From Patescibacteria group bacterium (GTDB lineage Bacteria; Patescibacteriota; Patescibacteriia; UBA2591; UBA6264): a DNA stretch of 64,000 bases. Location of the stretch: NCBI GenBank assembly GCA_021735685.1, contig JAIPGN010000001.1, forward strand, positions 111,669 through 175,668, read 5' to 3'. Positions 30,714 to 48,973 of the stretch are shown here, piece after piece. A model generated the notes under the pieces. It did no database searches and was not told the DNA's origin. It was given only the letters and a program-made list of their open reading frames with translations. A program made the translations under genes and the position numbers. Position 1 is the first letter of the stretch; every line of letters starts with the position of its first letter.

Positions 30714-32336
30714 TTGTTTATGCCTAAAATTTCTTCAGGCCTTCAAAAATTAATCAAAGATTATCAATTTTGGCAGAAATCTTTATCTTTGCCTCCTGGA
30801 GCTATTGTTATTCAGGCTGATGAGGTAGCTAGCAAGCTTGCCTCTCTTTATGAGCGTATCAGAAAAGTGGTGGATTGGAAAGAGCAACATTTAATGAGAA
30901 GAGTGGCTATTGAGAGAATTCTAAAAAGAAGGCTTCTTTTAAGAACCAAAGGACAGCAAATTGCTGAGCCTTTTGTTTTAGAATTAGTGCGAGGCGGTTA
31001 TTTTCCTTCTACTCCGATTGAGAAACAAAAAATATCAGTTGTTCAAAAGGTTTTAGATAAGTACATCTTTATTCTTGATCGCCTAAAAAAAATTGATTTA
31101 AAGGGCAAAAATCAAGGAGAGGTTTATACAGATATTTTGGGAATTGCCGCTTGTGAAATTGAAGAAGTTCTGGCGCCTAATTTTTACTTAAAACAAAATG
31201 CTTTAATTCGTTTTGCCGAAGGAGTGATGAGAGAAAGAATCAAAGTGGGAAGCCGAGCGCGGGAATTAACTCAGATCACAGATGAAGAAATTAAAATTCA
31301 AATTTATATTAGCTTACAGCAATCCCTCTTTAAATTAGATGCGCCGATTATTAGTTATAATTTAATTAAGCGTTATTATCCTTTTTGGTCTCATCCTACT
31401 CCTGAGCAAATTAAACCTTTTGCAGAAAGACTGGGGCAAGTTTTGGAAGATATTGAGACTCAACTTAATCATCCTTTAGCTAATAAGTTTTACAAAATAA
31501 TGGAACGCTACAATACTCCTTATTTGTTGTTGGATGATATTCTTAGCGAGGATCCTCAGGTTTTGTCTTCTGATAAAATTGAAGAGCCTTCAGATTTGAA
31601 TCGTTATGTGAGTCGAGCTTATTCGGATCGTTTAAAGACTTTGCGTTCTCGTTTAGGGCGAGCTGCTTTTTACAGCACGCTTTCTATTTTTTTAACCAAC
31701 CTTTTCACTCTTTATGTTTTAGAGTTTCCTTTTGCTAAATACGTGATGGGAAGCATCAATCCTTTGGCGGCAGTAATTGATGTTTTGGGGCCTACTTTTT
31801 TAATGCTTTTTTTAGTTTCTACGGTTAGAACTCCTTCTTCGGGGAACAAAAAAATAGTTTTAGAAGAAGTGCAAAAAATAGTTTACGAGGACATGGAAAA
31901 AGTAAGTTATGAGGTGGAGGTTTATCGTAAAGGTAATTTTGTTTTCCGTTTGATTAATAATTTAATTTATGGCATTAGTTTTGCTGCTTGTTTTGGTCTT
32001 ATTCTTTTTGCTCTTTATAAATTAAATTATCCGCCCCTTTCTTATCTCCTTTTGATTATGTTTACTTCTTTAATTGCTTTTACCGGGAATAAAATTAGAA
32101 AAAGGTCACGTGAATTGCACGTGACTGAAAAGAAAGATAGTTTTTTTCAAGTTATTATTGATTTATTTTCTGTGCCAGTGATGAGTTTAGGGAAATGGTT
32201 TTTGGCCCGTTGGAAAAAGATTAATATTTTGGGAGTAGCCTTTAATGTTTTGATTGACACTCCTTTTTTAATTTTTGTTCAGTTCCTAGAACAATGGAGA
32301 TATTTTTTAAAAGAAAAAAAAGAGAATTTAAGATAA
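30714..32336 (+). CDS. hypothetical protein, soluble N-terminal half plus ~4-TM C-terminal half
   Basis: 540 aa with no recognisable family. The C-terminal half is hydrophobic. It contains an intragenic perfect palindrome GTCACGTGaattgCACGTGAC at about 32105-32126. Confidence 0.4.
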   Translation: MFMPKISSGLQKLIKDYQFWQKSLSLPPGAIVIQADEVASKLASLYERIRKVVDWKEQHLMRRVAIERILKRRLLLRTKGQQIAEPFVLELVRGGYFPSTPIEKQKISVVQKVLDKYIFILDRLKKIDLKGKNQGEVYTDILGIAACEIEEVLAPNFYLKQNALIRFAEGVMRERIKVGSRARELTQITDEEIKIQIYISLQQSLFKLDAPIISYNLIKRYYPFWSHPTPEQIKPFAERLGQVLEDIETQLNHPLANKFYKIMERYNTPYLLLDDILSEDPQVLSSDKIEEPSDLNRYVSRAYSDRLKTLRSRLGRAAFYSTLSIFLTNLFTLYVLEFPFAKYVMGSINPLAAVIDVLGPTFLMLFLVSTVRTPSSGNKKIVLEEVQKIVYEDMEKVSYEVEVYRKGNFVFRLINNLIYGISFAACFGLILFALYKLNYPPLSYLLLIMFTSLIAFTGNKIRKRSRELHVTEKKDSFFQVIIDLFSVPVMSLGKWFLARWKKINILGVAFNVLIDTPFLIFVQFLEQWRYFLKEKKENLR

Positions 32337-32388
32337 ATAATAGAAATAATTGATTGTTCTCTAGCAGTCAATGTAATTTATGTTTGTT

Positions 32389-34008
32389 ATGACAAAATAT
32401 GTTTTTGTAGTCGGAGGAGTAATGTCGGGATTAGGTAAGGGAGTGGCCACTGCCTCTATGGGTCGGCTTTTACAAAGCAAAGGTTATCGTGTTTCTGCGA
32501 TCAAAATTGATCCCTACATTAATGTTGATGCTGGTACTATGAATCCCGTAGAGCACGGTGAGGTTTTTGTTACTGAAGATGGCTTAGAAACTGATCAAGA
32601 TTTGGGTAATTATGAGCGTTTTTTGAACAAGGATATTACTAGCTTAAATTACATGACCACGGGAAGTGTTTATAGTAGCGTTATTCAGAAAGAAAGAAAT
32701 CTAGAATATCAGGGTCGTTGTGTAGAGGTAATCCCTCATATTCCCAATGAAGTTATTGAGCGCATTAAAAAAGTGGGGCAAGAAACTAAATCCGATATAG
32801 TTTTGATTGAAGTTGGAGGAACTGTTGGAGAATACCAAAATGCTATTTTTTTAGAAGCTGCTCGGATGATGAAGTTAGAAAATCCAGGCCATGTTGTTTT
32901 CGTAATGCTTAGTTATTTGCCCGTGCCCCCTAAAATTGGAGAAATGAAAACTAAACCGACTCAATATGCGGTTCGTACTTTAAATTCAGCTGGCTTGCAA
33001 CCGGATTTTATTTTAGCACGTTCGGTTGTCCCTTTAGATGCGGTGCGCAAAGAAAAAATTTCTACTTTTTGTAATATTTCTCCGGAAAATATTATTTCAG
33101 CGCCAGATGTGGACTCAATTTATAAAGTTCCGCTTAATTTTGCTAAAGATAATTTAGGAGAAAAGATTTTAAAAAAATTGAAATTACCAGCGCGTGCTAG
33201 TGATTTGAAAAAATGGCGGCGTATTGTTAAGACCGCTGCGCAAGCTTCTAAGAAAGTGAATGTTGGTTTAGTTGGTAAATATTTTGCTACTGGTAAATTT
33301 ACTTTAACCGATTCTTATATCTCGGTAATCGAAGCGGTTCGTCATGCTGCTTGGGCCAATAATTGTCGCCCTGTTTTTCATTGGATTAATAGCCAACAGA
33401 TTGAAAAACAAGGAGTTAAGGCTCTCAAAGATTTAGATGGTGTAATCATTACTCAGGGCTGGGGCAAAAGAGGCTCGGAAGGAATGATTAAAGCCATTCA
33501 ATTTTGTCGCGAGAATAAAAAGCCCTGTTTTGGACTTTGTTATGGACTACAAATGGCTGTTATTGAGTTTGCTCGTCATGTTTGCGGGATTAAGGGAGCC
33601 ACTTCAGAAGAAATTGACCCGCAAGCCAAGGATCAAGTTATTCATATTATGCCTGACCAAAAAGATATGGTTGCCCGTAAGCGATATGGAGGAACTATTA
33701 GACTAGGAGCTTATCCTTGTTGTTTACAGCCCAAAAGCCGGGCTGCTAGCATTTATCGACAAAAAAAGATTTTTGAAAGACATCGTCATCGTTATGAATT
33801 TAATAATCAATATCGAAAAGATTTCGAAAAAAAAGGTTTAGTGGTTAGTGGAGTTTCTCCAGATAATAAATTGGTAGAAATCGTTGAAATTTCTGATCAT
33901 CCCTTTTTTCTGGCTACTCAATTTCATCCTGAGTACAAATCACGGCTTTTGGCTCCTCACCCTTTATTTAAAGCTTTTGTTAAAGCCTCTTTATTAACCA
34001 AGAAATAA
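32389..34008 (+). CDS. pyrG: CTP synthase
   Basis: 'MTKYVFVVGGVMSGLGKG' N-terminus, and the GATase domain with 'GLCYGLQ' and 'H..RYE'. Confidence 0.9.
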   Translation: MTKYVFVVGGVMSGLGKGVATASMGRLLQSKGYRVSAIKIDPYINVDAGTMNPVEHGEVFVTEDGLETDQDLGNYERFLNKDITSLNYMTTGSVYSSVIQKERNLEYQGRCVEVIPHIPNEVIERIKKVGQETKSDIVLIEVGGTVGEYQNAIFLEAARMMKLENPGHVVFVMLSYLPVPPKIGEMKTKPTQYAVRTLNSAGLQPDFILARSVVPLDAVRKEKISTFCNISPENIISAPDVDSIYKVPLNFAKDNLGEKILKKLKLPARASDLKKWRRIVKTAAQASKKVNVGLVGKYFATGKFTLTDSYISVIEAVRHAAWANNCRPVFHWINSQQIEKQGVKALKDLDGVIITQGWGKRGSEGMIKAIQFCRENKKPCFGLCYGLQMAVIEFARHVCGIKGATSEEIDPQAKDQVIHIMPDQKDMVARKRYGGTIRLGAYPCCLQPKSRAASIYRQKKIFERHRHRYEFNNQYRKDFEKKGLVVSGVSPDNKLVEIVEISDHPFFLATQFHPEYKSRLLAPHPLFKAFVKASLLTKK

Positions 34009-34198
34009 ACAACTTATCCACATTGACTAATTAAGTTTTTGAGATATAATAATAATTAATTAAAAGAACTTCCCAGCTGGTCATATAATTTGATTTAGCT
34101 GAAAAAAGATTATTGCGAAATGTTTACTTTTGTAAAAATTATTGAGCATATTTTTCTGTCGGATGGTTAATTTTTTTTGATTGTAGAAAAAAATGATA

Positions 34199-34221
34199 AC
34201 CGCCGGCTCGGCGGTTTTTTT
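34199..34221 (+). terminator. rho-independent terminator-like hairpin
   Basis: ACCGCCG-GCT-CGGCGGT followed by TTTTTTT. It lies between pyrG and the 23S rRNA gene. Confidence 0.5.
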
Positions 34222-34324
34222 AATTGTTCTTTGAAAATTAAAGAAGAAAAAGCATCTTAAGCTTTAATTATTATATTAAAGCTCACGCCAAAAACATTTA
34301 ATTATTATGAATTAAATGATGAAT

Positions 34325-37360
<3,036 letters not shown>

Positions 37361-37409
37361 CTAATTTATCATTTAGTTCATAATTTATTTTTCCTAAGGA
37401 CAATAGAAT

Positions 37410-37518
37410 TCTGGTGATTCTGCCGGGGAGGAAACACCTGTTCCCATCCCGAACACAGAAGTTAAGCTCCCTAGGGCCGATGGTAGTCTTTAAGGCGAGA
37501 GTAGGTAATCGCCAGAAT
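37410..37518 (+). rRNA. rrf: 5S ribosomal RNA
   Basis: 'TCTGGTGATTCTGCCGGGGAGGAAACACCTGTTCCCATCCCGAACACAGAAGTTAAGC...GAGAGTAGGTAATCGCCAGAA' shows the conserved 5S blocks. Helix I ends pair. Confidence 0.85.
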
Positions 37519-37536
37519 TCTGTTGTTCTTTTTCTA

Positions 37537-37566
37537 AAACCGCTATTTTTATTTAGCGGTTTTTTT
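37537..37566 (+). terminator. rRNA operon rho-independent terminator
   Basis: A 9-bp stem AAACCGCTA/TAGCGGTTT with an 8-nt loop, followed by T7. Confidence 0.6.
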
Positions 37567-37618
37567 GTTAAAATCAAAATACCTTTTTTAATGTATTATA
37601 TAATAATATTTAATTTCT

Positions 37619-37657
37619 CTGCCTACCGGTAGGCAGGCTTGTCTGCCGGTAGGCAGA
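37619..37657. promoter_or_regulatory. pair of operator-like palindromes CTGCCTACCGGTAGGCAG and TCTGCC-GGTAGGCAGA
   Basis: The first 18-mer is a perfect palindrome. The second is an imperfect copy about 22 bp downstream (roughly two helical turns). The pair lies about 45 nt upstream of the EndoQ-like gene start. Confidence 0.35.
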
Positions 37658-37699
37658 AAGGCTCTGCGAATAAAGTGAGCAGGTTTTTGTTATAAACAT

Positions 37700-38938
37700 A
37701 TGCAATATATAGCTGACTTTCATATTCATTCTAAGTATTCACGAGCTACCTCGCCCCAAATGGACTTGGAGCATTTAGATTATGAGGCTGCTCGCAAAGG
37801 AATCCAGGTTTTGGGAACCGGGGATTTTACTCATCCTGCTTGGTTTAAAGAATTAAAAGAGAAATTACATCTAGTGTCCGAAGGTATTTATCAAGTTAAA
37901 AACAGTAAATATTTGACTAATTTCATTTTGACTTCGGAATTATCTTGTATCTATAAAAAGAATGGAAAATGTCGCCGAATTCATTTGGTTTTTTTGGCTC
38001 CCAGCTTGGAGGTGGTTGAAAAGATTAACAAAAAATTAGACCAGAGATTTAATATAAGGTCAGACGGTCGTCCTATTTTGGGTGTTGATGCCGAAGAGTT
38101 AGCTAAGCTCATTTTTGATATTTCTCCGAAATGTTTTTTAATTTGCGCCCATATTTGGACTCCCTGGTTTTCTTTGTTTGGCGCTAAATCGGGATTTGAT
38201 ACAGTAGAAGAATGCTTTGGAGAAATGAGTTCCAAAGTTTATGCTATGGAAACGGGTTTAAGTTCTGACCCGGCCATGAATTGGCGCTTGTCAGCTTTGG
38301 ATAAATACACCCTACTTAGTAATTCTGATGCTCATAGTCCTCGCAATTTAGGCAGAGAAGCTAACGTTTTTGATTTAAAAAAATTAACTTATTCTAATCT
38401 AATTAATGCCATTAAAACCAAAAAAGGCCTAGAATATACTATTGAATTTTATCCAGAAGAAGGAAAATATCATTTAGATGGTCATCGAGCCTGTGACATT
38501 AAAATGACCCCTCAGGAATCAATAAAGAACAAAAATATTTGTCCGCAATGTCATCGTCCTCTGACTATTGGCGTCTTGCATCGTGTTAATGAACTAGCTG
38601 ATCGTCCCGAGGGTTTTATTCCTTCGAAAGCCATCCCATTCAAGAGTATTATCCCTTTGCCTGAATTGATTTCCGAAATAAAAGGAGTGGGCCCCAAATC
38701 TAAAACAGTTCAAAAAGAATATGATTCTTTAATTTCTAAGGGCCAAAGTGAATTTAATATTTTACTTCATCTCTCTTTTTCTCAATTAAAAGAAATTACT
38801 TCTTTAGAATTAGCTCGGGCCATTATTAAGGCGAGAGAAGGAAAGGTGATTAAAGAAGCTGGTTATGATGGGGTTTATGGAAAGATAAAAGTGTCCGAGT
38901 CAGAAGATGGTAAAATTTCTCAAAAAAAACTTTTTTAA
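37700..38938 (+). CDS. PHP-domain endonuclease, EndoQ-like (TIGR00375-like) with C4 zinc ribbon
   Basis: The N-terminus 'ADFHIHSKYSRATSP' is a PHP metal-binding motif, with further His/Asp PHP motifs ('HIWTPWFS', 'NSDAHSP'). A Cys4 ribbon 'CPQCHRPLT' is present, and the ~410 aa size matches archaeal/bacterial EndoQ. Confidence 0.55.
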   Translation: MQYIADFHIHSKYSRATSPQMDLEHLDYEAARKGIQVLGTGDFTHPAWFKELKEKLHLVSEGIYQVKNSKYLTNFILTSELSCIYKKNGKCRRIHLVFLAPSLEVVEKINKKLDQRFNIRSDGRPILGVDAEELAKLIFDISPKCFLICAHIWTPWFSLFGAKSGFDTVEECFGEMSSKVYAMETGLSSDPAMNWRLSALDKYTLLSNSDAHSPRNLGREANVFDLKKLTYSNLINAIKTKKGLEYTIEFYPEEGKYHLDGHRACDIKMTPQESIKNKNICPQCHRPLTIGVLHRVNELADRPEGFIPSKAIPFKSIIPLPELISEIKGVGPKSKTVQKEYDSLISKGQSEFNILLHLSFSQLKEITSLELARAIIKAREGKVIKEAGYDGVYGKIKVSESEDGKISQKKLF

Positions 38939-38998
38939 CCCAAATGTTTTTTCACAAATTAAATTAATCAGCAAATACCTTGGATTGTTCCAAAATAA

Positions 38999-39045
38999 AT
39001 GTACGAGGTCGAACCTCGTACATACTTAGGGGTTCAGCCCCTAAG
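38999..39045. repeat. two adjacent perfect hairpins (ATGTACGAGGT-cga-ACCTCGTACAT and CTTAGGGG-ttca-GCCCCTAAG) lacking T-runs
   Basis: 11-bp and 8-bp perfect stems lie back to back, 60 nt downstream of the EndoQ-like stop. Further partial dyads (GGTTGACCCCTGGGTTAACC) follow up to 39100. Confidence 0.3.
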
Positions 39046-39182
39046 CTCTACTGAGCCTTAACCTTGCAATGTCAATTTGTTAAAAAACTGTAAATGGTTG
39101 ACCCCTGGGTTAACCGACAAAAGATTTCCTCGCGGGTTTGACTTATGAGGAAGTGAAAAATAAAAAATTAAGAACAAAAATT

Positions 39183-39923
39183 ATGAAAACAAAAATACAA
39201 GGCAAAGAGTCGGTCATGGATTATTATCAAGATGATGAGGTGGCCTCGAAATACATAGAGCAAAGATATAGCTCTCTTTTTGGAAAACTAAGGAATGAAA
39301 TAGAGATTAAAGTCATCAATTCTTTTTTGAAATATTTAAATCCTAAAACGACCTTAGATTTGGCTACAGGCACAGGAAGAATAACTAAAAGTTTGAAAAA
39401 CTATGGCCAGGGTTATGCACTTGATACGAGTGGAGAAATGTTAGAACACGCTAAAAAGGATATAAATAATTGGACGTTAAGAAAATCAGATGCATTTGAT
39501 ACGCAATTTGAGGATAATTTTTTTGATGTTGTTATATCAACTCGCTTTATCTGGCATTTTGATAAATCTAATAGAATTAAGTTATTTGCAGAAATCCGCA
39601 GAATATTAAAAGATAATGGTCACCTTATTTTTGACTTCCCAAACGCAAATATAAAAAGATTTATTCGAAAAAAGGCAAAAATAGGCTTCAAAAGAATTTA
39701 TACTCAATCCTGGACCACGGCAGGAATCAAAGAAGAATTGTTTAAGAATAATTTTCAGATTGTCTCCATAAAAGGCATTTTGCATAATCCTAAAATATTG
39801 CGTAATATGTCTGACAAATCGAGTTCCATGGTTAATTTTTTTAAAATGAAATTGGCAAATATATTAAGTCGCAAAGAGGCTTATAATTATGTAGTTCTTG
39901 CCATAAAGACTAAAGAGAGTTGA
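39183..39923 (+). CDS. class I SAM-dependent methyltransferase (type 11/12, small-molecule or RNA type)
   Basis: Motif I 'LDLATGTGRIT' and the post-I acidic 'ALDTS' are present. It is not a DNA MTase (no DPPY/NPPY or TRD). The start is uncertain: ATG at 39183 or 39216. The track's ORF uses a TTG start at 39138. Confidence 0.65.
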   Translation: MKTKIQGKESVMDYYQDDEVASKYIEQRYSSLFGKLRNEIEIKVINSFLKYLNPKTTLDLATGTGRITKSLKNYGQGYALDTSGEMLEHAKKDINNWTLRKSDAFDTQFEDNFFDVVISTRFIWHFDKSNRIKLFAEIRRILKDNGHLIFDFPNANIKRFIRKKAKIGFKRIYTQSWTTAGIKEELFKNNFQIVSIKGILHNPKILRNMSDKSSSMVNFFKMKLANILSRKEAYNYVVLAIKTKES

Positions 39924-40072
39924 ATCATGGGAAAATAAGAATAATTTACCTTTAATTAAAATTGTTTTATGCCTCCTGGAGGCATCACCAAAAATTTTTA
40001 CGGGATGAATGATATTACGCAAGAGTTTCATAAGTTATTAGATTTAGTGAAAGATAAGTTAATTTTTATCTT

Positions 40073-40228
40073 ATGAGCATTAATAAATTTCCTTATCAAA
40101 TTCATCTATGTTTGGGAATTATTTGGATTCTGGTCGGAATATTTTTTCATTCAGGGATAGAGCTAATCGTCTGGACGATTGGTGGTCTAGTGATGATTGT
40201 GATTGGTTTGATAAACAAAGGCTCTTGA
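40073..40228 (+). CDS. possible small membrane protein (51 aa, 2 TM), not in the ORF track
   Basis: ATG...TGA frame encoding MSINKFPYQIHLCLGIIWILVGIFFHSGIELIVWTIGGLVMIVIGLINKGS, with two hydrophobic helices. It is below the 60-aa track cutoff. Confidence 0.2.
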   Translation: MSINKFPYQIHLCLGIIWILVGIFFHSGIELIVWTIGGLVMIVIGLINKGS

Positions 40229-40240
40229 GAGAAAATCAAG

Positions 40241-41053
40241 ATGATATTAAAAGAAATTGAGGCAAAATCAATTATCGTTAAATCAAATCTCCCGGAGGGG
40301 GATTTCGTTATTAATCCTTATACTGGTTGTGGTCACGCTTGTCTTTATTGTTATGCTAGGTTTATGAAGAGATTTACTAATCACTCTGAATCTTGGGGAG
40401 ACTTTATCGATATAAAAATTAATGCTCCAAACTTAATTCCCGAAAATACTGAAAAATTCAAGAACAAATCAATAGTCTTTGGCTCGGTGACAGATGCTTA
40501 TCAGCCATTAGAGGGGAAGTATAAGTTAACTCGGCAAATTCTTCAAAAGTTAATACCATTACAGCCGAATTTGGATATTATTACCAAGTCAAACCTTGTT
40601 TTGAGAGATATTGATTTATTGAAACAATTTGACAATTGCACAGTCGCTATTTCTGCTTCTTTTCTAGACGAAAAGGTTAAGAATAAATTAGAGCCTCAAT
40701 CAATTGCCACAAAAAAGAGGATAGATATCCTAAAACAATTGCGTAAAGCCGGTATCAAAACCGTTTTGTTTGTCTCGCCAATTTTTCCTGAAATTAGTGA
40801 TTGGAAAAAATTAACAGATTCAACTCAAGATTTCGTTAATCAGTATTGGTTTGAAAGTTTAAATCTTTATCCATCAATCAGAAAAGAGGTTTATAAATTT
40901 TTAAAAGGATATAATCCCGATTTAATCTCTAGATATAAAGAGATTTATTCTTCTAATAGTCATTATTGGGATAGAACAGAAGACGAAATACAAGATTATT
41001 GTAAGCAAAATAAATTGGATTATCGAATTTATTTTCATCACAAGAGTAAATAA
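40241..41053 (+). CDS. radical SAM protein, spore-photoproduct-lyase/'DNA repair photolyase' (SplB, COG1533)-like
   Basis: 'NPYTGCGHACLYCYARF' is a CX3CX2C radical-SAM cluster motif embedded in the SPL-family context. 270 aa. Confidence 0.65.
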   Translation: MILKEIEAKSIIVKSNLPEGDFVINPYTGCGHACLYCYARFMKRFTNHSESWGDFIDIKINAPNLIPENTEKFKNKSIVFGSVTDAYQPLEGKYKLTRQILQKLIPLQPNLDIITKSNLVLRDIDLLKQFDNCTVAISASFLDEKVKNKLEPQSIATKKRIDILKQLRKAGIKTVLFVSPIFPEISDWKKLTDSTQDFVNQYWFESLNLYPSIRKEVYKFLKGYNPDLISRYKEIYSSNSHYWDRTEDEIQDYCKQNKLDYRIYFHHKSK

Positions 41054-41148
41054 GAATTTTGTTTGCAAATGGTTGATCTCTGGAGTTAATCAATAAAAAT
41101 TCAATTATCAAAGAGTTAAGCATAAATTATTTTGTTAATTAATCATTT

Positions 41149-41535
41149 ATGAGAGTTGCAATCAGCGCTGTAATTATTGAGGATAAAAAACTTTTATTAG
41201 TAAAAAAAAGGAAAACATGGATATTACCTGGGGGAAAACCAGAAGAGAATGAAACCGATTTAGAATGCCTCCGAAGAGAAGTTGAAGAAGAGTTATCTGG
41301 AACAAAATTGAGCAATATTAAATATTACAATAGTTTTGAGGGCAGAACTCCTCATAAAGGAGATATTCTTCGAGCCAAGGTATACTTTGCAAATATTGAT
41401 GGACAACTACATCTTCCGTCTAAAGAGATTACAGATTCTCAGTGGGTAGATGATTTTTTAAAATATAATTTGTCGGACATTACTATGAAAATTGTAAATT
41501 TTTTAAAAAAAGATAAATATTTAAATAAAGCATAG
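41149..41535 (+). CDS. Nudix hydrolase
   Basis: The Nudix box 'GGKPEENETDLECLRREVEEELSG' (GX5EX7REUXEEXGU) is present. Confidence 0.85.
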   Translation: MRVAISAVIIEDKKLLLVKKRKTWILPGGKPEENETDLECLRREVEEELSGTKLSNIKYYNSFEGRTPHKGDILRAKVYFANIDGQLHLPSKEITDSQWVDDFLKYNLSDITMKIVNFLKKDKYLNKA

Positions 41536-41594
41536 GTCGAATTGACGGGAAACATGGAAAGATAAATAAAAATTTTAATAAAAATTATAACCCA

Positions 41595-42830
41595 ATGACC
41601 CAACAGCAAGCACTTAAAATCTTGAAATCTGGAGTAAATGTTTTTTTAACAGGTTCGGCGGGAACAGGAAAAACCTTTTTGTTAAATCAATTCATTTCAT
41701 ATCTAAGGAAATCTAATAAGAAAATTGGTATAACGGCCTCTACAGGAATTGCTGCTACTCATCTTGAGGGCCGAACAATTCATTCTTGGTCGGGGATTGG
41801 CATAAAAAAAGAAATGGATGAAAAATCTTTAAAGCACATCGCCAAAAATAAGAGAATCAACAAAAGAATTAAAGAGACACAGACTTTGATTATTGATGAA
41901 ATATCAATGCTAGATGCTAATCGATTGACCTTAGTTGATCGAGTTTGCAAAAAAATTAAAGACCCCTTCCTTCCTTTCGGGGGTCTGCAAATAATAATGT
42001 GCGGTGATTTTTTTCAGCTTCCTCCAGTAAGCCAGGGAGAAAAGTCGCAATTTGCTTATGAGTCACCAGTTTGGCAAAATTCAAATATTAGGGTTTGCTA
42101 TCTTAGTAAGCAGTTTCGCCAAAATGATTCCGCATTTACTGACATTTTGAATAAAATTAGAGAAAATAAGGCTGGTTTAGAAGAGTTAAATTTATTAAAG
42201 ACACGGTTAAACCAATCTATAAATCTTTCTGTAAGACCCACTCAGCTATACACGCACAATGTTAAAGTTGACATAATCAACGATTTGGAATTATCCAGAA
42301 TTCCCAAAAAAGAAATGACTTATTATATGATCGGTCAAGGAGAAAAGCGCTTAGTTGATCTTTTGAAAAAGAATTGTTTAGCTCCCGAAGAATTGAAATT
42401 GAAAATTGGAGCGATGGTAATGTTTGTTAAGAATAATTTTGAGGCCGGTTATGTTAATGGCACCCTTGGTAAGGTGGTTGATTATGATGATGATAAATGT
42501 CCGATTATTGAGACAACTTCTGGTCAACACATTATAGCTTCTCCTGTTACTTGGAATATGGAAGAAAATAATGAGGTTGTTGCGAGCGTTAAGCAGGTTC
42601 CTCTACGTTTAGCTTGGGCTATTACTGTTCACAAGAGTCAAGGTATGAGCCTAGATGCTGCGGAAATTGATTTGTCAAAATCATTTGAACACGGCATGGG
42701 CTATGTGGCCTTGTCTAGAATAAGAAGATTAGATAATGTTAGATTGATGGGTATTAATCAAATAGCTTTACGAGTTAGCCCAGAAGTTGTAGAGAAAGAT
42801 AAAGAATTCAAAAAATTATCAGAAATATAA
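41595..42830 (+). CDS. Pif1/RecD-like SF1 5'-3' DNA helicase (compact, 411 aa)
   Basis: Walker A 'VFLTGSAGTGKTFLL', 'LIIDEISML' (Walker B) and 'GDFFQLPPV' (motif III typical of Pif1/RecD) are present, along with a C-terminal 'VHKSQGMSLD' motif V/VI region. Confidence 0.75.
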   Translation: MTQQQALKILKSGVNVFLTGSAGTGKTFLLNQFISYLRKSNKKIGITASTGIAATHLEGRTIHSWSGIGIKKEMDEKSLKHIAKNKRINKRIKETQTLIIDEISMLDANRLTLVDRVCKKIKDPFLPFGGLQIIMCGDFFQLPPVSQGEKSQFAYESPVWQNSNIRVCYLSKQFRQNDSAFTDILNKIRENKAGLEELNLLKTRLNQSINLSVRPTQLYTHNVKVDIINDLELSRIPKKEMTYYMIGQGEKRLVDLLKKNCLAPEELKLKIGAMVMFVKNNFEAGYVNGTLGKVVDYDDDKCPIIETTSGQHIIASPVTWNMEENNEVVASVKQVPLRLAWAITVHKSQGMSLDAAEIDLSKSFEHGMGYVALSRIRRLDNVRLMGINQIALRVSPEVVEKDKEFKKLSEI

Positions 42831-42879
42831 ATTATGAATTTTTTTAAGGGTCAGATTTTTAAGTATAAAAATAAAAAAT

Positions 42880-44076
42880 ATGAAAAAAATATATTTAGAT
42901 TATAGTGCGACCACTCCTGTGGATCGAAGGGTGATGAAATCGATGCAACCTTATTTTTCTAAAACATTTGCCAATGCTTCTAGTTTGCATAGTGCCGGAA
43001 AATTAGCTCAACAAGCTCTTGTTGACTCTCGTCAAAAAATAGCTAATTTACTGGGAGTTTCTCCAGAAGAAATTATTTTTACAGCTAGTGGGAGCGAAGC
43101 TAATAATTTAGCTTTCAAAGGTATTTTTAATGCTATAGACCTACCAAAGAAACATATTATCACTTCTTCAATTGAGCATTCTGCTGTTTTGAATCCAGCT
43201 CGTTTTTTAGAAGGGCAAGGGGCTCAAGTAACTTATTTGGGTGTTAGTCAAGAAGGAATCATAGATTTAGGAAAATTAAAAAATTCTCTTAAGCCCCAAA
43301 CTGTTTTAATTTCCATTATGCACGCTAATAATGAAATGGGGGCAATTCAGCCTCTTGCTGAGATTGGCGAAATCATTAAACAGGAAAAAGAAAAAAGAAA
43401 AAAAGAGAAAAATAATTATCCTCTTTATTTTCACACAGACGCTGTACAAACTTTGGGGCATCTTCCTTTTCTGGCTCAGAAGTGGGGCGTTGATTTATTC
43501 TCGGGGTCAGCTCATAAATTATATGGACCCAAGGGAGTTGGATTGCTTTATTTAAAAAAAGGCATTAAAATTATTCCTCTTTTTCATGGCGGAGCTCATG
43601 AAAATGGAAAGCGAGCTTCAACCGAAAATATTCCGGGAATCGTTGGTTTTGCTCGCGCTCTAGAGTTGGCTTATCAAGAAATGGATTCAGAGGTAAAGCG
43701 TTTAAAAAAGTTGAGAGATTATTTAATTGAAAGTGTTTTGAAAAAAATAGAAAACTCTTGTCTTAATGGGCCGCAAGCTCAAAGATTGCCCAATAATGCT
43801 AATTTAAGTTTTGCTGGAGTAGAGGGAGAGGCTTTGTTAATGTATTTAGATCGTCAACAAATTTATTGCTCTACGGGTTCAGCTTGTTCGTCGGCAAGTT
43901 TAGCACCATCACATGTTTTAACTGCCCTAAACCTTCCTCCAGAGATATCTCATTCTTCTTTGCGTTTTTCTTTGGGGCGCTGGACTAATAAAAAAGAAAT
44001 AGATTATCTTTTAGAAAAATTAATTTTAGCCGTTAAGAACTTGAGAGAAATTTCTGCTTTAAAGATCAATTACTAA
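42880..44076 (+). CDS. iscS: cysteine desulfurase (IscS/NifS class)
   Basis: The PLP-lysine block 'SGSAHKLYGPKGVG' and the active-site Cys loop 'GSACSS' are present. A K/E-rich insertion is also seen. Confidence 0.85.
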   Translation: MKKIYLDYSATTPVDRRVMKSMQPYFSKTFANASSLHSAGKLAQQALVDSRQKIANLLGVSPEEIIFTASGSEANNLAFKGIFNAIDLPKKHIITSSIEHSAVLNPARFLEGQGAQVTYLGVSQEGIIDLGKLKNSLKPQTVLISIMHANNEMGAIQPLAEIGEIIKQEKEKRKKEKNNYPLYFHTDAVQTLGHLPFLAQKWGVDLFSGSAHKLYGPKGVGLLYLKKGIKIIPLFHGGAHENGKRASTENIPGIVGFARALELAYQEMDSEVKRLKKLRDYLIESVLKKIENSCLNGPQAQRLPNNANLSFAGVEGEALLMYLDRQQIYCSTGSACSSASLAPSHVLTALNLPPEISHSSLRFSLGRWTNKKEIDYLLEKLILAVKNLREISALKINY

Positions 44077-44092
44077 TATTTAATGAGTATTT

Positions 44093-44479
44093 ATGTCTAA
44101 TCATTTTCAAGACAATGATAAAATAATGGATCATTTTTTTAATCCTCGTAACTTGGGGACCATGAAAAATCCTGATGCTTTTGGGCAAGTGGGAAATCCC
44201 CGCTGTGGAGACATTATGCATATTTATTTAAAAATTGATAATGATATTATTAAAGATATTAAGTTTCAAACTTATGGTTGTGCGGTGGCTATTGCCTCTA
44301 CATCTATTTTGACTGAGATGGTTAAGGGAAAGACTTTGTCTGAAACTCAAAAAATATCAAGTCAAAGAATCAGAGAAGCTTTGGGAAAGATGCCAGCCTA
44401 TAAGCAACATTGCACGGTCTTAGCTGAACAAGCTTTAAAAAAGGCAATTGAGGATTATCAAAAAGAAAAAAATGCTTAA
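44093..44479 (+). CDS. Fe-S cluster assembly scaffold (NifU/IscU N-terminal domain type)
   Basis: 'GNPRCGDIMHIYLKI...FQTYGCAVAIAS' with three conserved Cys. 128 aa. Confidence 0.8.
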   Translation: MSNHFQDNDKIMDHFFNPRNLGTMKNPDAFGQVGNPRCGDIMHIYLKIDNDIIKDIKFQTYGCAVAIASTSILTEMVKGKTLSETQKISSQRIREALGKMPAYKQHCTVLAEQALKKAIEDYQKEKNA

Positions 44480-45554
44480 GGCTCAAAATCAAAAAAAGAT
44501 AGCAGTGGCCATGTCTGGCGGAGTTGATTCATCAGTGGCTGCTTTTTTATTAAAAGAAAAAAATGGAATTAAAAATGTTTTTGGTATGACCATGCGGGCC
44601 GGACGCTTTCATCAGTTAGCGGTAGAGAGGGCTAAAATTATTTGTCAGAGATTAAAAATTACTCATTATGTGGTTAATTTAGAAAAAGAATTTCAACAAG
44701 AAATTATTAAACCTTTTGTTGATGAATATTGCCAATCACACACCCCTAATCCTTGTGTTTGGTGTAACCAGAAAATAAAATTTGGAGTTTTGTTGGAAGC
44801 TGCTCAAGAATTGGGAGCTAATTATTTAGCTACTGGACACTATGTTCGTCAAGAAAGTAAAGAGGGTAATTATATTTTAAGAAAAGCCCTCTCTTCCAAA
44901 AAAGATCAATCTTATTTTCTTTATCGTTTGAATCAAAAGCAGTTAAGTTCAGCAATTTTTCCTTTAGGAATTTACTCTAAGGAGGAGGTTAAGGAAACGG
45001 CCCAAAATAATAGTTTATCTTTTGAAAAACAAAAAGAATCTCAAGACATTTGTTTTTTGCCGGATAATGATTATCGAAAACTTTTGCAAAGAGACTCTTC
45101 TGTTTTTGTGCCTGCGGGGAGTTTTAAAGATTTAGAGGGTAATGTTTTAGGGCGACATCAAGGTTTACCTTTTTATACTATTGGTCAGAGAAAAGGTTTG
45201 ATTTCTGGACAAAAGGAACCTTTTTATGTTTTAGAGATTAATCAAGAAAAAAACGAGATTATCCTCGGTCCGGAAAAATATTTATATCAAAAAAAATTAA
45301 AATTTGAAAATTGTTCTTGGGTTAACCCTTCTTTTGTTTTAAAAAACAAAGAAGAGTCTTTTTTTCTTGATCAAATCAGGGGTAAAATTAGATACCAACA
45401 TCCAGTTGCTCAAATTGAAAATTTTAATCTTAGTAACAATCTCAAACAAGGAGAAGTTAGATTCAAAAGTCCGCAGCGAGCCATTACTCCTGGTCAATCT
45501 GTGGTTTTTTATCTTCAGGATCAAGTTTTAGGAGGAGGTTTTATCAGCAAATAA
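44472..45554 (+). CDS. mnmA: tRNA-specific 2-thiouridylase MnmA
   Basis: The PP-loop 'IAVAMSGGVDSSVAAFLL' and catalytic Cys residues are present. The start was placed at the internal ATG overlapping the nifU stop by 8 nt. Confidence 0.85.
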   Translation: MLKAQNQKKIAVAMSGGVDSSVAAFLLKEKNGIKNVFGMTMRAGRFHQLAVERAKIICQRLKITHYVVNLEKEFQQEIIKPFVDEYCQSHTPNPCVWCNQKIKFGVLLEAAQELGANYLATGHYVRQESKEGNYILRKALSSKKDQSYFLYRLNQKQLSSAIFPLGIYSKEEVKETAQNNSLSFEKQKESQDICFLPDNDYRKLLQRDSSVFVPAGSFKDLEGNVLGRHQGLPFYTIGQRKGLISGQKEPFYVLEINQEKNEIILGPEKYLYQKKLKFENCSWVNPSFVLKNKEESFFLDQIRGKIRYQHPVAQIENFNLSNNLKQGEVRFKSPQRAITPGQSVVFYLQDQVLGGGFISK

Positions 45555-45632
45555 TTTATTAAAGATAAATTTAATTTATTTTTTTAATAAAAAAGCACAG
45601 AGACTAATTCCCTGTGGTTTTTTAAGTAAAGA

Positions 45633-45717
45633 TGGTGCCGAAGGTGGGACTTGAACCCACAAGCCTTACGGCACATGGTCCTAAACCATGCGTGTTTACC
45701 AATTTCACCACTTCGGC
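45633..45717 (-). tRNA. tRNA-Leu (anticodon TAG), 85 nt with long variable arm, CCA encoded
   Basis: The reverse complement folds as acceptor GCCGAAG/CTTCGGC, a D-arm, anticodon stem CATGG with loop TTTAGGA, a 14-nt variable arm and T-arm GTGGG-TTCAAGT-CCCAC, then A-CCA. Confidence 0.8.
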
Positions 45718-45791
45718 CCTAAATAAATAATGTGGAGTTTTAACCTCCACATAGTATTGACTTGGGAGTTGAGCTCCTAAGTAATTAAAGA

Positions 45792-45878
45792 TGGTGCCGG
45801 AGGCGGGACTTGAACCCGCACGGACTTGCGTCCACAAGATTTTAAGTCTTGCGTGTCTACCAATTTCACCACCCCGGC
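45792..45878 (-). tRNA. tRNA-Leu (anticodon TAA), 87 nt with long variable arm, CCA encoded
   Basis: The reverse complement is GCCGGGGTGGTGAAATTGGTAGACACGCAAGA-CTTAAAA-TCTTG..GGTTCAAGTCC..CTCCGGC-A-CCA. Its D-arm is almost identical to the neighbouring tRNA-Leu. Confidence 0.8.
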
Positions 45879-45973
45879 TACTTTTTACAACTTTAATTTT
45901 AATCAGATAATCTAAAAATGTCAACATTGTCAGAAATGTTTTTTTTTGCTAAGATAATATTATTAGAGTCTTT

Positions 45974-48832: not shown

Positions 48833-48973
48833 GTAGAGTTAAAAAAATGTTAAAAAATTGACATTTTTCAAAAATTACCTCTAAAAACCTTTCCTTGATT
48901 GGTTTTTAGAGAAGCAGTTTTTGGGGTCTGGCCCCATTTGAAAAATTAAAATTTGGTTTGTTTATTTGATTAT

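Follow-up and report, generated by a model that had tools for sequence, protein, structure and literature searches.

Genomic islands, restriction-modification islands included, are frequent in Patescibacteria (PMC12455944), and core-flanked hotspots of defence genes have been described in Pseudomonas aeruginosa (PMC10250203). We report here on a block of five genes (37700-42830) within a stretch of 64,000 nucleotides from a Patescibacteria group bacterium (contig JAIPGN010000001.1, positions 111,669 to 175,668), to which we refer as the window. The block encodes an endonuclease Q (EndoQ) family protein, a class-I S-adenosylmethionine (SAM)-dependent methyltransferase, a radical SAM protein, a small Nudix hydrolase and a Pif1-family helicase, and an original prediction had taken it for a compact cluster of linked DNA-repair and nucleotide-sanitation genes that might be an acquired island. 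Our comparison with close relatives points elsewhere: the block is quite likely this genome's version of a strain-variable interval lying between conserved anchors, one on the EndoQ side and one on the NifS side, and not one machine. The locus is a flexible genomic island of an already known sort. It shares with the islands of Patescibacteria and the hotspots of P. aeruginosa the conserved flanks, the strain-specific cargo, the presence of some defence genes and the native base composition, and differs from them in that the cargo consists mostly of very small single genes (nucleotide hydrolases, DNA enzymes), in that neither an integrase nor a tRNA attachment site is found, and in that its genes can be seen to erode one by one. 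Integron arrays, with which we group integrase-less clusters of attC sites, are similar in their co-oriented single-gene units and in their repeated or hairpin-bearing spacers, but the block has no integrase, no attC-like structure and none of these repeats.

Gene content between EndoQ and NifS in close relatives

The comparison loci, designated by L-numbers, are metagenome assemblies. Those of close relatives share with the window a left flank made of POR-TsaD-ORF538-PyrG-23S-5S-EndoQ (79-92% nucleotide identity), in which EndoQ orthologues 82-87% identical occupy the same position, and, where it is assembled, a right flank made of NifS-NifU-MnmA (42880..45554, + strand, in the window). The right flank directly follows the Pif1 gene in L082, L170 and L174, and lies 1.9 kb after EndoQ in L002, where a single tetratricopeptide repeat (TPR) protein is encoded between EndoQ and NifS. 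We propose that PyrG, the 23S-5S rRNA genes and EndoQ may act as the left anchor, and NifS-NifU-MnmA as the right anchor, of an interval whose single co-oriented cargo genes would be gained, lost and eroded independently among close relatives, EndoQ itself being presumably a vertically inherited housekeeping enzyme of the lineage, fixed beside the variable DNA.

What lies between the anchors changes from one relative to the next. The window has the methyltransferase, a gene for a 51-residue protein (orf51), the radical SAM protein (rSAM), a Nudix hydrolase of 128 residues (Nudix128) and Pif1. L174 carries genes for a Bestrophin-like protein, a split NTPase_I-T, MazG, Nudix127, ASCH, the methyltransferase, a Nudix hydrolase of 141 residues (Nudix141), a 170-residue protein, rSAM, Nudix128 and Pif1, while L082 is reduced to a split ASCH gene, a methyltransferase remnant, rSAM and Pif1. 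In L170 we found SNase, DUF2726, Nudix132, DUF6884, GIY-YIG, DUF1653, rSAM and Pif1, and in L086 a longer series consisting of Bro-N, SNase, a LexA-like gene, RhuM, PDDEXK, Pif1, ASCH, Nudix143, DUF1653, an rSAM remnant, a MazG-like gene, orf51, HIT, HD and a further Nudix gene. L087 and L088 diverge after the LexA-like gene, their cargos including a HinfI-type restriction-modification system and a ThsB-like TIR protein, so that L086, L087 and L088 combine an identical EndoQ protein with three different cargos; L177 differs again from the other variants. The Nudix genes of different island variants are not orthologous to each other.

Decay products accompany this variation. The body of the methyltransferase gene is deleted in L082, where only a 31-nt 5' remnant counted from its ATG remains, a 59-nt 5' remnant is what is left of rSAM in L086, and a Nudix gene survives as a relic in the window (39940-40058, see below). 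The NTPase_I-T gene at 2334-2861 of L174 and the ASCH gene at 11405-11775 of L082 are split and probably pseudogenised, which indicates that erosion of the island cargo is ongoing.

The composition of the block is native. Compared with the other 51 genes of the window, each of its genes has a GC z-score between +0.2 and -1.6, and z-scores for GC content at third codon positions (GC3) and for codon usage remain within about 1.8; no gene of the block is thus an outlier in GC, GC3 or synonymous codon likelihood, contrary to what a compositionally deviating island would require. The closest homologues of every cargo gene occur within the same lineage, at 71-87% identity. The Pfam lists of the island loci contain no family of tyrosine or serine recombinases or of integrases, and no tRNA gene lies at the island boundary. 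Because of this native composition, of the same-lineage homologues and of the absence of any listed recombinase family, the turnover looks like exchange and deletion among related genomes. Of the suggestion that the block had been acquired, the island-like character is borne out, the content between EndoQ and NifS differing gene by gene, and the idea of recent foreign DNA is not. It seems reasonable to suppose that genes turn over through deletions and through homologous recombination in which the conserved flanks and the repeated intergenic units let related DNA enter, that no recombinase would be involved, and that the exchanged DNA would come from related genomes of the same base composition. 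Each cargo gene would most likely act alone.

An intergenic repeat of about 100 nt separates gene modules in the relatives' islands. In it a GC hairpin (ATGGGGtCTGaCCCC) precedes a stretch of high conservation (GTGAGTTTTAAGCCGATTTTTCAAAAATGGCACGATTTTG). The repeat is always co-oriented with the genes inside the islands, and occurs in L086 (13733-13829 and 14959-15057), L087 (8589-8687), L088 (8176-8264, 9268-9366 and 10815-10914) and L170 (1635-1733 and 3910-4008). Searches with nhmmer gave no copy in the window's block, and weak ones at 48852-48939 of the window (- strand) and at 1645-1730 of L086 (- strand). The consensus folds into three short hairpins with little covariation and has no Rfam match; a sigma-54-like TGGCACG-N4-TTG string, the spacing of which is one base short, was seen by eye. 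The repeat might serve as a terminator/promoter unit, give rise to a small RNA or be a substrate for recombination.

Spacers, hairpins and gene relics

The long spacers and perfect hairpins noticed in the block are real. The spacers measure 199 nt (244 nt if counted to the ATG at 39183), 317 nt and 95 nt against a window median of about 45 nt, the 244-nt spacer being the fifth longest of the 57 in the window. It is at the long spacers that the gene content of the relatives diverges. Window and L174 are colinear over the methyltransferase (39182-39972) and over rSAM-Nudix128-Pif1-NifS (40237-43691, 87.7% identity), and the first spacer (38939-39181) matches the site of five L174 genes (2.75 kb) while the second (39973-40236) matches the site of Nudix141 and the 170-residue gene. 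At the position of the first spacer, other genes occupy between 0.6 kb and over 6 kb in the relatives, among them the split ASCH of L082 and, in L086, Bro-N, SNase, LexA and more. A further presence/absence difference concerns Nudix128 itself, 41066-41562 of the window being missing in L082 and present in L174.

The second spacer contains a relic of a deleted Nudix gene (39940..40058, + strand), consisting of the N-terminal 15 codons followed, in another frame, by the C-terminal 23 codons. In tblastn these two parts align colinearly with residues 2-16 (73%) and 116-138 (43%) of the intact Nudix141 of L174; the spacer is therefore what remains of an internally deleted gene, of which it still encodes two out-of-frame parts. 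L082 has the same relic. The first spacer, searched by tblastn with every L174 island protein, yielded no credible gene relic.

Downstream of the relic lies orf51 (40073..40228, + strand), a presence/absence cassette already suspected in the original prediction of encoding a small membrane protein. Its product is hydrophobic and, read by eye, probably has two transmembrane helices. A homologue in L086, also of 51 residues, is 73% identical, differs by conservative hydrophobic substitutions and stands in a different gene context, while L082 and L174 lack the gene; judged by this conservation, orf51 is a real, mobile small gene.

The palindromes had been proposed to mark the island together with the spacing. 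The spacers do mark it, as places where content differs; the hairpins are commonplace in the intergenic DNA of the window. The first spacer (38939..39182, + strand) contains four stacked hairpins, its part 38939-39085 folding with z = -6.2, and perfect hairpins are found at 38999-39023 (11 bp), 39025-39045 (8 bp) and 39969-39985, the last one within the Nudix relic. Across the window 13 perfect hairpins have stems of 8 bp or more, and the intergenic DNA, which amounts to 4.3 kb, contains 8 of these, against about 2 in shuffled sequences. The simplest reading is that they are terminator-like stem-loops, of a kind frequent between the genes of this genome. A search of Rfam over 37500-42900, at the gathering threshold and at E <= 1, gave no RNA family in the spacers.

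A hairpin motif of 24-25 nt, AAATGGTTGA(C/T)C(C/T)CTGG(A)GTTAA(C/T)C, is present in two copies, one at 39092..39115 (+ strand) and the other at 41067-41091, just 3' of rSAM. Diverged versions of the second copy sit 3' of rSAM in L082 and L174. The motif occurs nowhere else in the window, and a search for its exact cores (11-15 nt, no mismatches) was negative in all other fetched loci; we take it for a probable terminator-like hairpin combined with a duplicated junction, and not for a site common to the islands.

Linkage outside the lineage

The prediction of five consecutive genes on one strand was correct, the open reading frames (ORFs) lying on the + strand at 37700-38938, 39138/39183-39923, 40241-41053, 41149-41535 and 41595-42830. 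This orientation is uninformative, since 45 of the 52 genes of the window, which is AT-rich (GC about 35%), are on the + strand. The five genes are not a conserved repair operon and are unlinked outside this lineage. Among 80 EndoQ loci of GTDB genomes, 54 of which extend at least 4 kb downstream, tblastn and phmmer detected homologues of neither rSAM, Nudix nor Pif1 at a distance of up to 10 kb and a single weak methyltransferase match, and only L002, the closest (68% identity), shares NifS-NifU-MnmA downstream. From the side of rSAM, 80 metagenomic loci encoding proteins 41-74% identical to it were inspected: Pif1 adjoins rSAM only in L090, which belongs to the same lineage, and de novo clustering of the surrounding ORFs gave as the commonest neighbour a family present in 9 of the 80 loci. 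The claim of a compact, linked repair cluster does not survive this comparison.

The proteins of the block

The gene identities proposed earlier hold at the level of family or superfamily, as judged by profile searches and by matches to sequences of known structures, and the names given by NCBI to the exact window proteins ('endonuclease Q family protein', 'class I SAM-dependent methyltransferase' and 'radical SAM protein') agree with them.

The EndoQ family protein (37700..38938, + strand), which stands as the conserved left anchor, comprises a PHP domain, a zinc domain and, at the C terminus, a helical domain. It matches EndoQ of Pyrococcus furiosus (PfuEndoQ, PDB 5zb8/7k30) over its full length (phmmer against 5zb8, E = 2.8e-53) and aligns end to end with TIGR00375 (residues 5-396 against 2-374 of 374) at 164.4 bits, under the equivalog cut-off of 326.6; matches to Pfam PF27218 are on record. 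All six catalytic metal ligands of the PHP domain of PfuEndoQ (H8, H10, E76, H84, H139 and D193; PMC5961232) are identical in the alignment to 5zb8. The zinc domain, which aligns through residue 401, had been described as a Cys4 ribbon. The EndoQ identity stands and the Cys4 description does not: the ligands are H-x2-C...C-x2-C (residues ~257-286), His replacing the first Cys of the C4 site of PfuEndoQ, and the same pattern is found in 117 of the 120 best homologues. This His-Cys3 site is, on the strength of the alignment, a variant ligand set rather than a loss. The protein also lacks the C-terminal tail of archaeal EndoQ. Its homology with the enzymes of Pyrococcus and Bacillus predicts that it nicks DNA 5' of abasic sites and of the deaminated bases uracil, hypoxanthine and xanthine.

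EndoQ had been called mainly archaeal, a view that our searches contradict. Homologues number at least 8000 at E <= 1e-10, the best 120 of them being 56-100% identical and named, with few exceptions, as Patescibacteria, and GTDB species representatives with EndoQ relatives include Patescibacteria, Desulfobacterota, Nitrospirota, Bacillota, Omnitrophota, Spirochaetota and others. In 2018, bacterial EndoQ was regarded as confined to a few taxa, the enzymes of B. pumilus and B. subtilis being active (PMC5961232); contrary to that view, EndoQ is routine in Patescibacteria and in many other bacterial phyla.

The methyltransferase (39183..39923, + strand, in an ORF open from 39138) belongs to the cargo of the variable interval. 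Its start at ATG 39183 is the better supported, as homology with the relatives begins there and the gene call of a Logan contig agrees. It matches Methyltransf_11 at 72.6 bits; profile searches returned no specific equivalog and no DNA-methyltransferase family. The family is rare, with 7 proteins found. Four members, namely that of the window, P0242, P0243 and P0244, were placed on contigs, and three of these four are located in the island beside EndoQ. Another class-I methyltransferase of about 250 residues, 31-38% identical to that of the window, lies 0.4-2.2 kb from rSAM, on either side, in 5 of the 80 unrelated rSAM loci (L101, L103, L108, L109 and L126). This proximity is a weak hint of an association and could be due to chance.

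The product of the third gene (40241..41053, + strand) is a stand-alone radical SAM enzyme of the COG1533 (SplB-like) superfamily. Its CX3CX2C motif (C30-x3-C34-x2-C37) is invariant in 40 homologues, and PF04055 is matched at 48.9 bits for a cut-off of 29.5. The best profile is TIGR04470, 'radical SAM mobile pair protein B', matched over the full length at 251.6 bits where 410 are required; the SOS-regulated PA0069 and Rv2578c families come next, and the protein stays under every curated cut-off. The protein had been taken for a relative of spore photoproduct lyase (SPL). The superfamily assignment stands, and the assignment to SPL itself was rejected: the SPL model TIGR04070 reaches 15.7 bits for a cut-off of 400 (E = 0.0055), and phmmer found no SPL match among PDB sequences at E <= 1. 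On these profile scores we place the protein in the SplB-like superfamily outside SPL. Generic radical SAM enzymes rank first in Foldseek, and SPL may be a distant fold relative only. With SPL, PA0069, Rv2578c and TIGR04470 it has in common the CX3CX2C motif whose last Cys is flanked by tyrosines (CLYCY), and it is about 70 residues shorter than SPL. Nor is the family rare, as had been argued on the assumption of SPL: about 7000 relatives were found at E <= 1e-10, in Patescibacteria, DPANN archaea and others.

With protein B of a Bacteroides plasmid rSAM is 42.6% identical. The mobile pair of these plasmids is arranged in the order MBL-A-B, and rSAM differs in having no partner A, no MBL neighbour and no conserved neighbour of any kind; tblastn with the A and MBL-fold proteins found neither in the window nor in any fetched locus. 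No close relative was found in IMG/VR viral contigs, and the phages of GenBank contain only distant ones (up to ~42% identity). We know of no solved member of COG1533 besides SPL, and the family would deserve biochemical study. The protein is probably a DNA-damage-related enzyme of the SplB-like superfamily. This role is suggested by the membership of COG1533 SplB-like genes in the LexA/SOS regulon of Actinobacteria, Proteobacteria, Verrucomicrobia and Bacteroidetes (PMC4951493, PMC8565304).

Nudix128 (41149..41535, + strand) matches PF00293 at 58.2 bits and displays a Nudix box readable as G-x5-E-x7-REVEEEL.SG. It reaches no substrate-specific NCBIfam equivalog, MutT giving 24 bits for a required 97.9, and would be, as predicted from its family, a nucleotide or cap pyrophosphatase. 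The last gene (41595..42830, + strand) encodes a Pif1-family SF1B helicase matching PF05970 at 149.3 bits and PF21530, the Pif1 2B domain, at 39.6 bits. Like the Pif1 proteins of yeast (5o6b, 5.8e-77), human (6hph, 5.6e-68) and Bacteroides (3e-50), all of which are matched over the full length, it has a 2B/SH3 domain and a Walker A motif (GSAGTGKT), and the segment PFGGLQIIMCGDFFQLPPV, read directly from the protein, resembles the Pif1 signature. It differs from known Pif1 helicases in being a bare core of 411 residues without accessory domains, and is predicted to act as a 5'-3' DNA helicase.

Alternative explanations

Several points weigh against our reading of the block as one version of a strain-variable interval. 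Relatives do not carry a random cargo: house-cleaning-type hydrolases (at least four non-orthologous Nudix genes, MazG, NTPase_I-T, HIT, HD) and DNA enzymes recur in it, so that some logic, be it selective or functional, may link it to nucleotide or DNA handling; a mere 'junk drawer' would not account for this recurrence. The arrangement rSAM-Pif1-NifS is stable in four lineage variants, and it may be that rSAM and Pif1 are semi-core genes and not cargo. As for recombination, we only infer its mechanism. Finally, strain mixtures in metagenome assemblies may yield chimeric contigs, a worry countered by the recurrence of several island arrangements on independent contigs and in independent samples. 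The nucleotide-sanitation theme of the original prediction does come back in the relatives' islands with their Nudix, MazG, NTPase_I-T, HIT and HD genes, as a thematic enrichment of the variable region and not as a conserved pathway.

In a coupled repair and sanitation operon, EndoQ would nick, Pif1 would unwind, rSAM would reverse photoproducts, Nudix128 would clean the nucleotide pool and the methyltransferase would mark or repair DNA. One could put forward that the five genes are co-oriented and related to nucleic acids, that COG1533 SplB-like proteins are under LexA/SOS control in several phyla (PMC4951493, PMC8565304), and that L174, the relative with the fullest island, further has next to EndoQ MazG, two additional Nudix genes and an ITPase-like NTPase_I-T, in keeping with a theme of damaged or deaminated nucleotides. 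Such an operon would also have made a notable toolkit for a reduced genome. We nevertheless hold such an operon to be improbable, for no linkage is conserved outside the lineage and, within it, the genes come and go independently while EndoQ stays; moreover, the methyltransferase is a generic enzyme of the small-molecule type that matches no DNA methyltransferase family, Nudix128 attains neither the MutT cut-off nor that of any other equivalog, and co-orientation is the rule in the window. A hotspot for anti-phage defence, or for phage-derived and anti-defence genes, in which the window's Nudix, Pif1-like helicase, rSAM and methyltransferase would serve defence or counter-defence, appears rather unlikely, even if the relatives have at this site a HinfI-type restriction-modification system, a ThsB-like TIR protein, Bro-N, RhuM, a LexA/S24-like repressor, GIY-YIG and PDDEXK nucleases and a HATPase_c_3 protein. 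In the window itself, Nudix128 matches the PADLOC candidate PDC-S07 nearly over its full length (E = 9.5e-12), the methyltransferase domain matches mad2, and rSAM and Pif1 have strong matches to phage families (phrog_13321, 3e-62, and phrog_325, 8e-74); the phage-family matches of rSAM, Pif1 and Nudix indicate that these families also travel on phages. The window, however, contains no complete known PADLOC system, its PADLOC matches are at the level of domains or of candidates only (the helicase matching RecD-like models), close viral relatives of rSAM are lacking in IMG/VR and distant in GenBank phages, and EndoQ has no defence match.

An integron-like array, in which single promoterless genes would be swapped at structured sites by a site-specific recombinase, would account for single co-oriented genes that are present or absent with gene precision, for the directly oriented ~100-nt intergenic repeat of the relatives' islands and for the two-copy junction motif of the window. 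We give it next to no weight: no island locus has an integrase or recombinase family, the repeat forms three short hairpins instead of one long imperfect attC-like hairpin and is missing from the window's block, and the gene remnants indicate ordinary deletions. Hardly more credible is a recently acquired foreign island from a distant donor inserted after the rRNA genes. The GC content of the methyltransferase, rSAM and Nudix genes (0.30-0.31 against a mean of 0.351) and the occurrence of the closest named family of rSAM, 'mobile pair protein B', on Bacteroides plasmids would favour it, but the GC z-score is only about -1.5 with normal GC3 and codon usage, the closest homologues of all cargo genes (71-87% identity) are in the same lineage, and a conserved EndoQ gene separates the island from the rRNA genes. 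It is tempting to hypothesize that the EndoQ-NifS interval is a dedicated, recombinase-free cassette-exchange site which preferentially gathers non-orthologous house-cleaning hydrolases (Nudix types, MazG, YjjX-like ITPase, HIT, HD) and small DNA enzymes, shuffled through the ~100-nt terminator/promoter-like units, a proposal that we regard as doubtful. Were it true, the site would be a strain-level toolkit policing the scavenged nucleotide pool, or serving nucleotide-depletion defence or counter-defence, in organisms unable to make nucleotides. Taken as a strain-variable interval, the locus offers a clean and well-bounded case of a small flexible compartment in ultra-small genomes, with relics lying between core anchors.

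Surroundings of the block

The block had been placed directly after an rRNA operon, of which a 23S-5S unit is confirmed and the rest is not. The bacterial 23S rRNA gene (34325-37365, + strand) begins this unit and the 5S gene (37410..37517, + strand, Rfam 88.5 bits), which is the left context of the block, ends it; no 16S gene is found upstream of the 23S gene or anywhere in the 64-kb window. PyrG (CTP synthase), ending at 34008, directly precedes the 23S-5S unit, so that the rRNA genes are unlinked (window 32380-37517), and the order PyrG-23S-5S without 16S is found again in L082 and L086. The adjacency of 23S-5S and EndoQ is restricted to this lineage and is looser in L048, where EndoQ lies ~3.6 kb downstream of the 23S gene. 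After the 5S gene comes a terminator-like hairpin followed by a T run (37536..37563, + strand), which is kept in the relatives. Then, still before EndoQ, a 41-nt double palindrome (37618..37657) is composed of CTGCCTACCGGTAGGCAG and a second imperfect copy and folds with z = -6.7. It is an insertion specific to this genome, missing in L086 and L087, which share both flanks, and in L082, and has no other occurrence in the window.

Further upstream, a 540-residue ORF at 30714-32336 has no Pfam or NCBIfam match and has versions of 537-538 residues at the same position in L082, L086 and L089. On the other side, a 101-residue ORF at 45622-45927 (- strand) overlaps two tRNA-Leu genes and deviates in GC3 (z = +3.5) and codon usage (z = -4.7); it is almost certainly not a gene. 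A second presence/absence difference is located past the right anchor (45311-45633 of the window, 16658-18778 of L082): in L082 a MatE transporter gene separates MnmA from the tRNA-Leu genes, whereas the window has none there. In L170, LAGLIDADG-like ORFs lie near the tRNA-Leu cluster downstream of MnmA.

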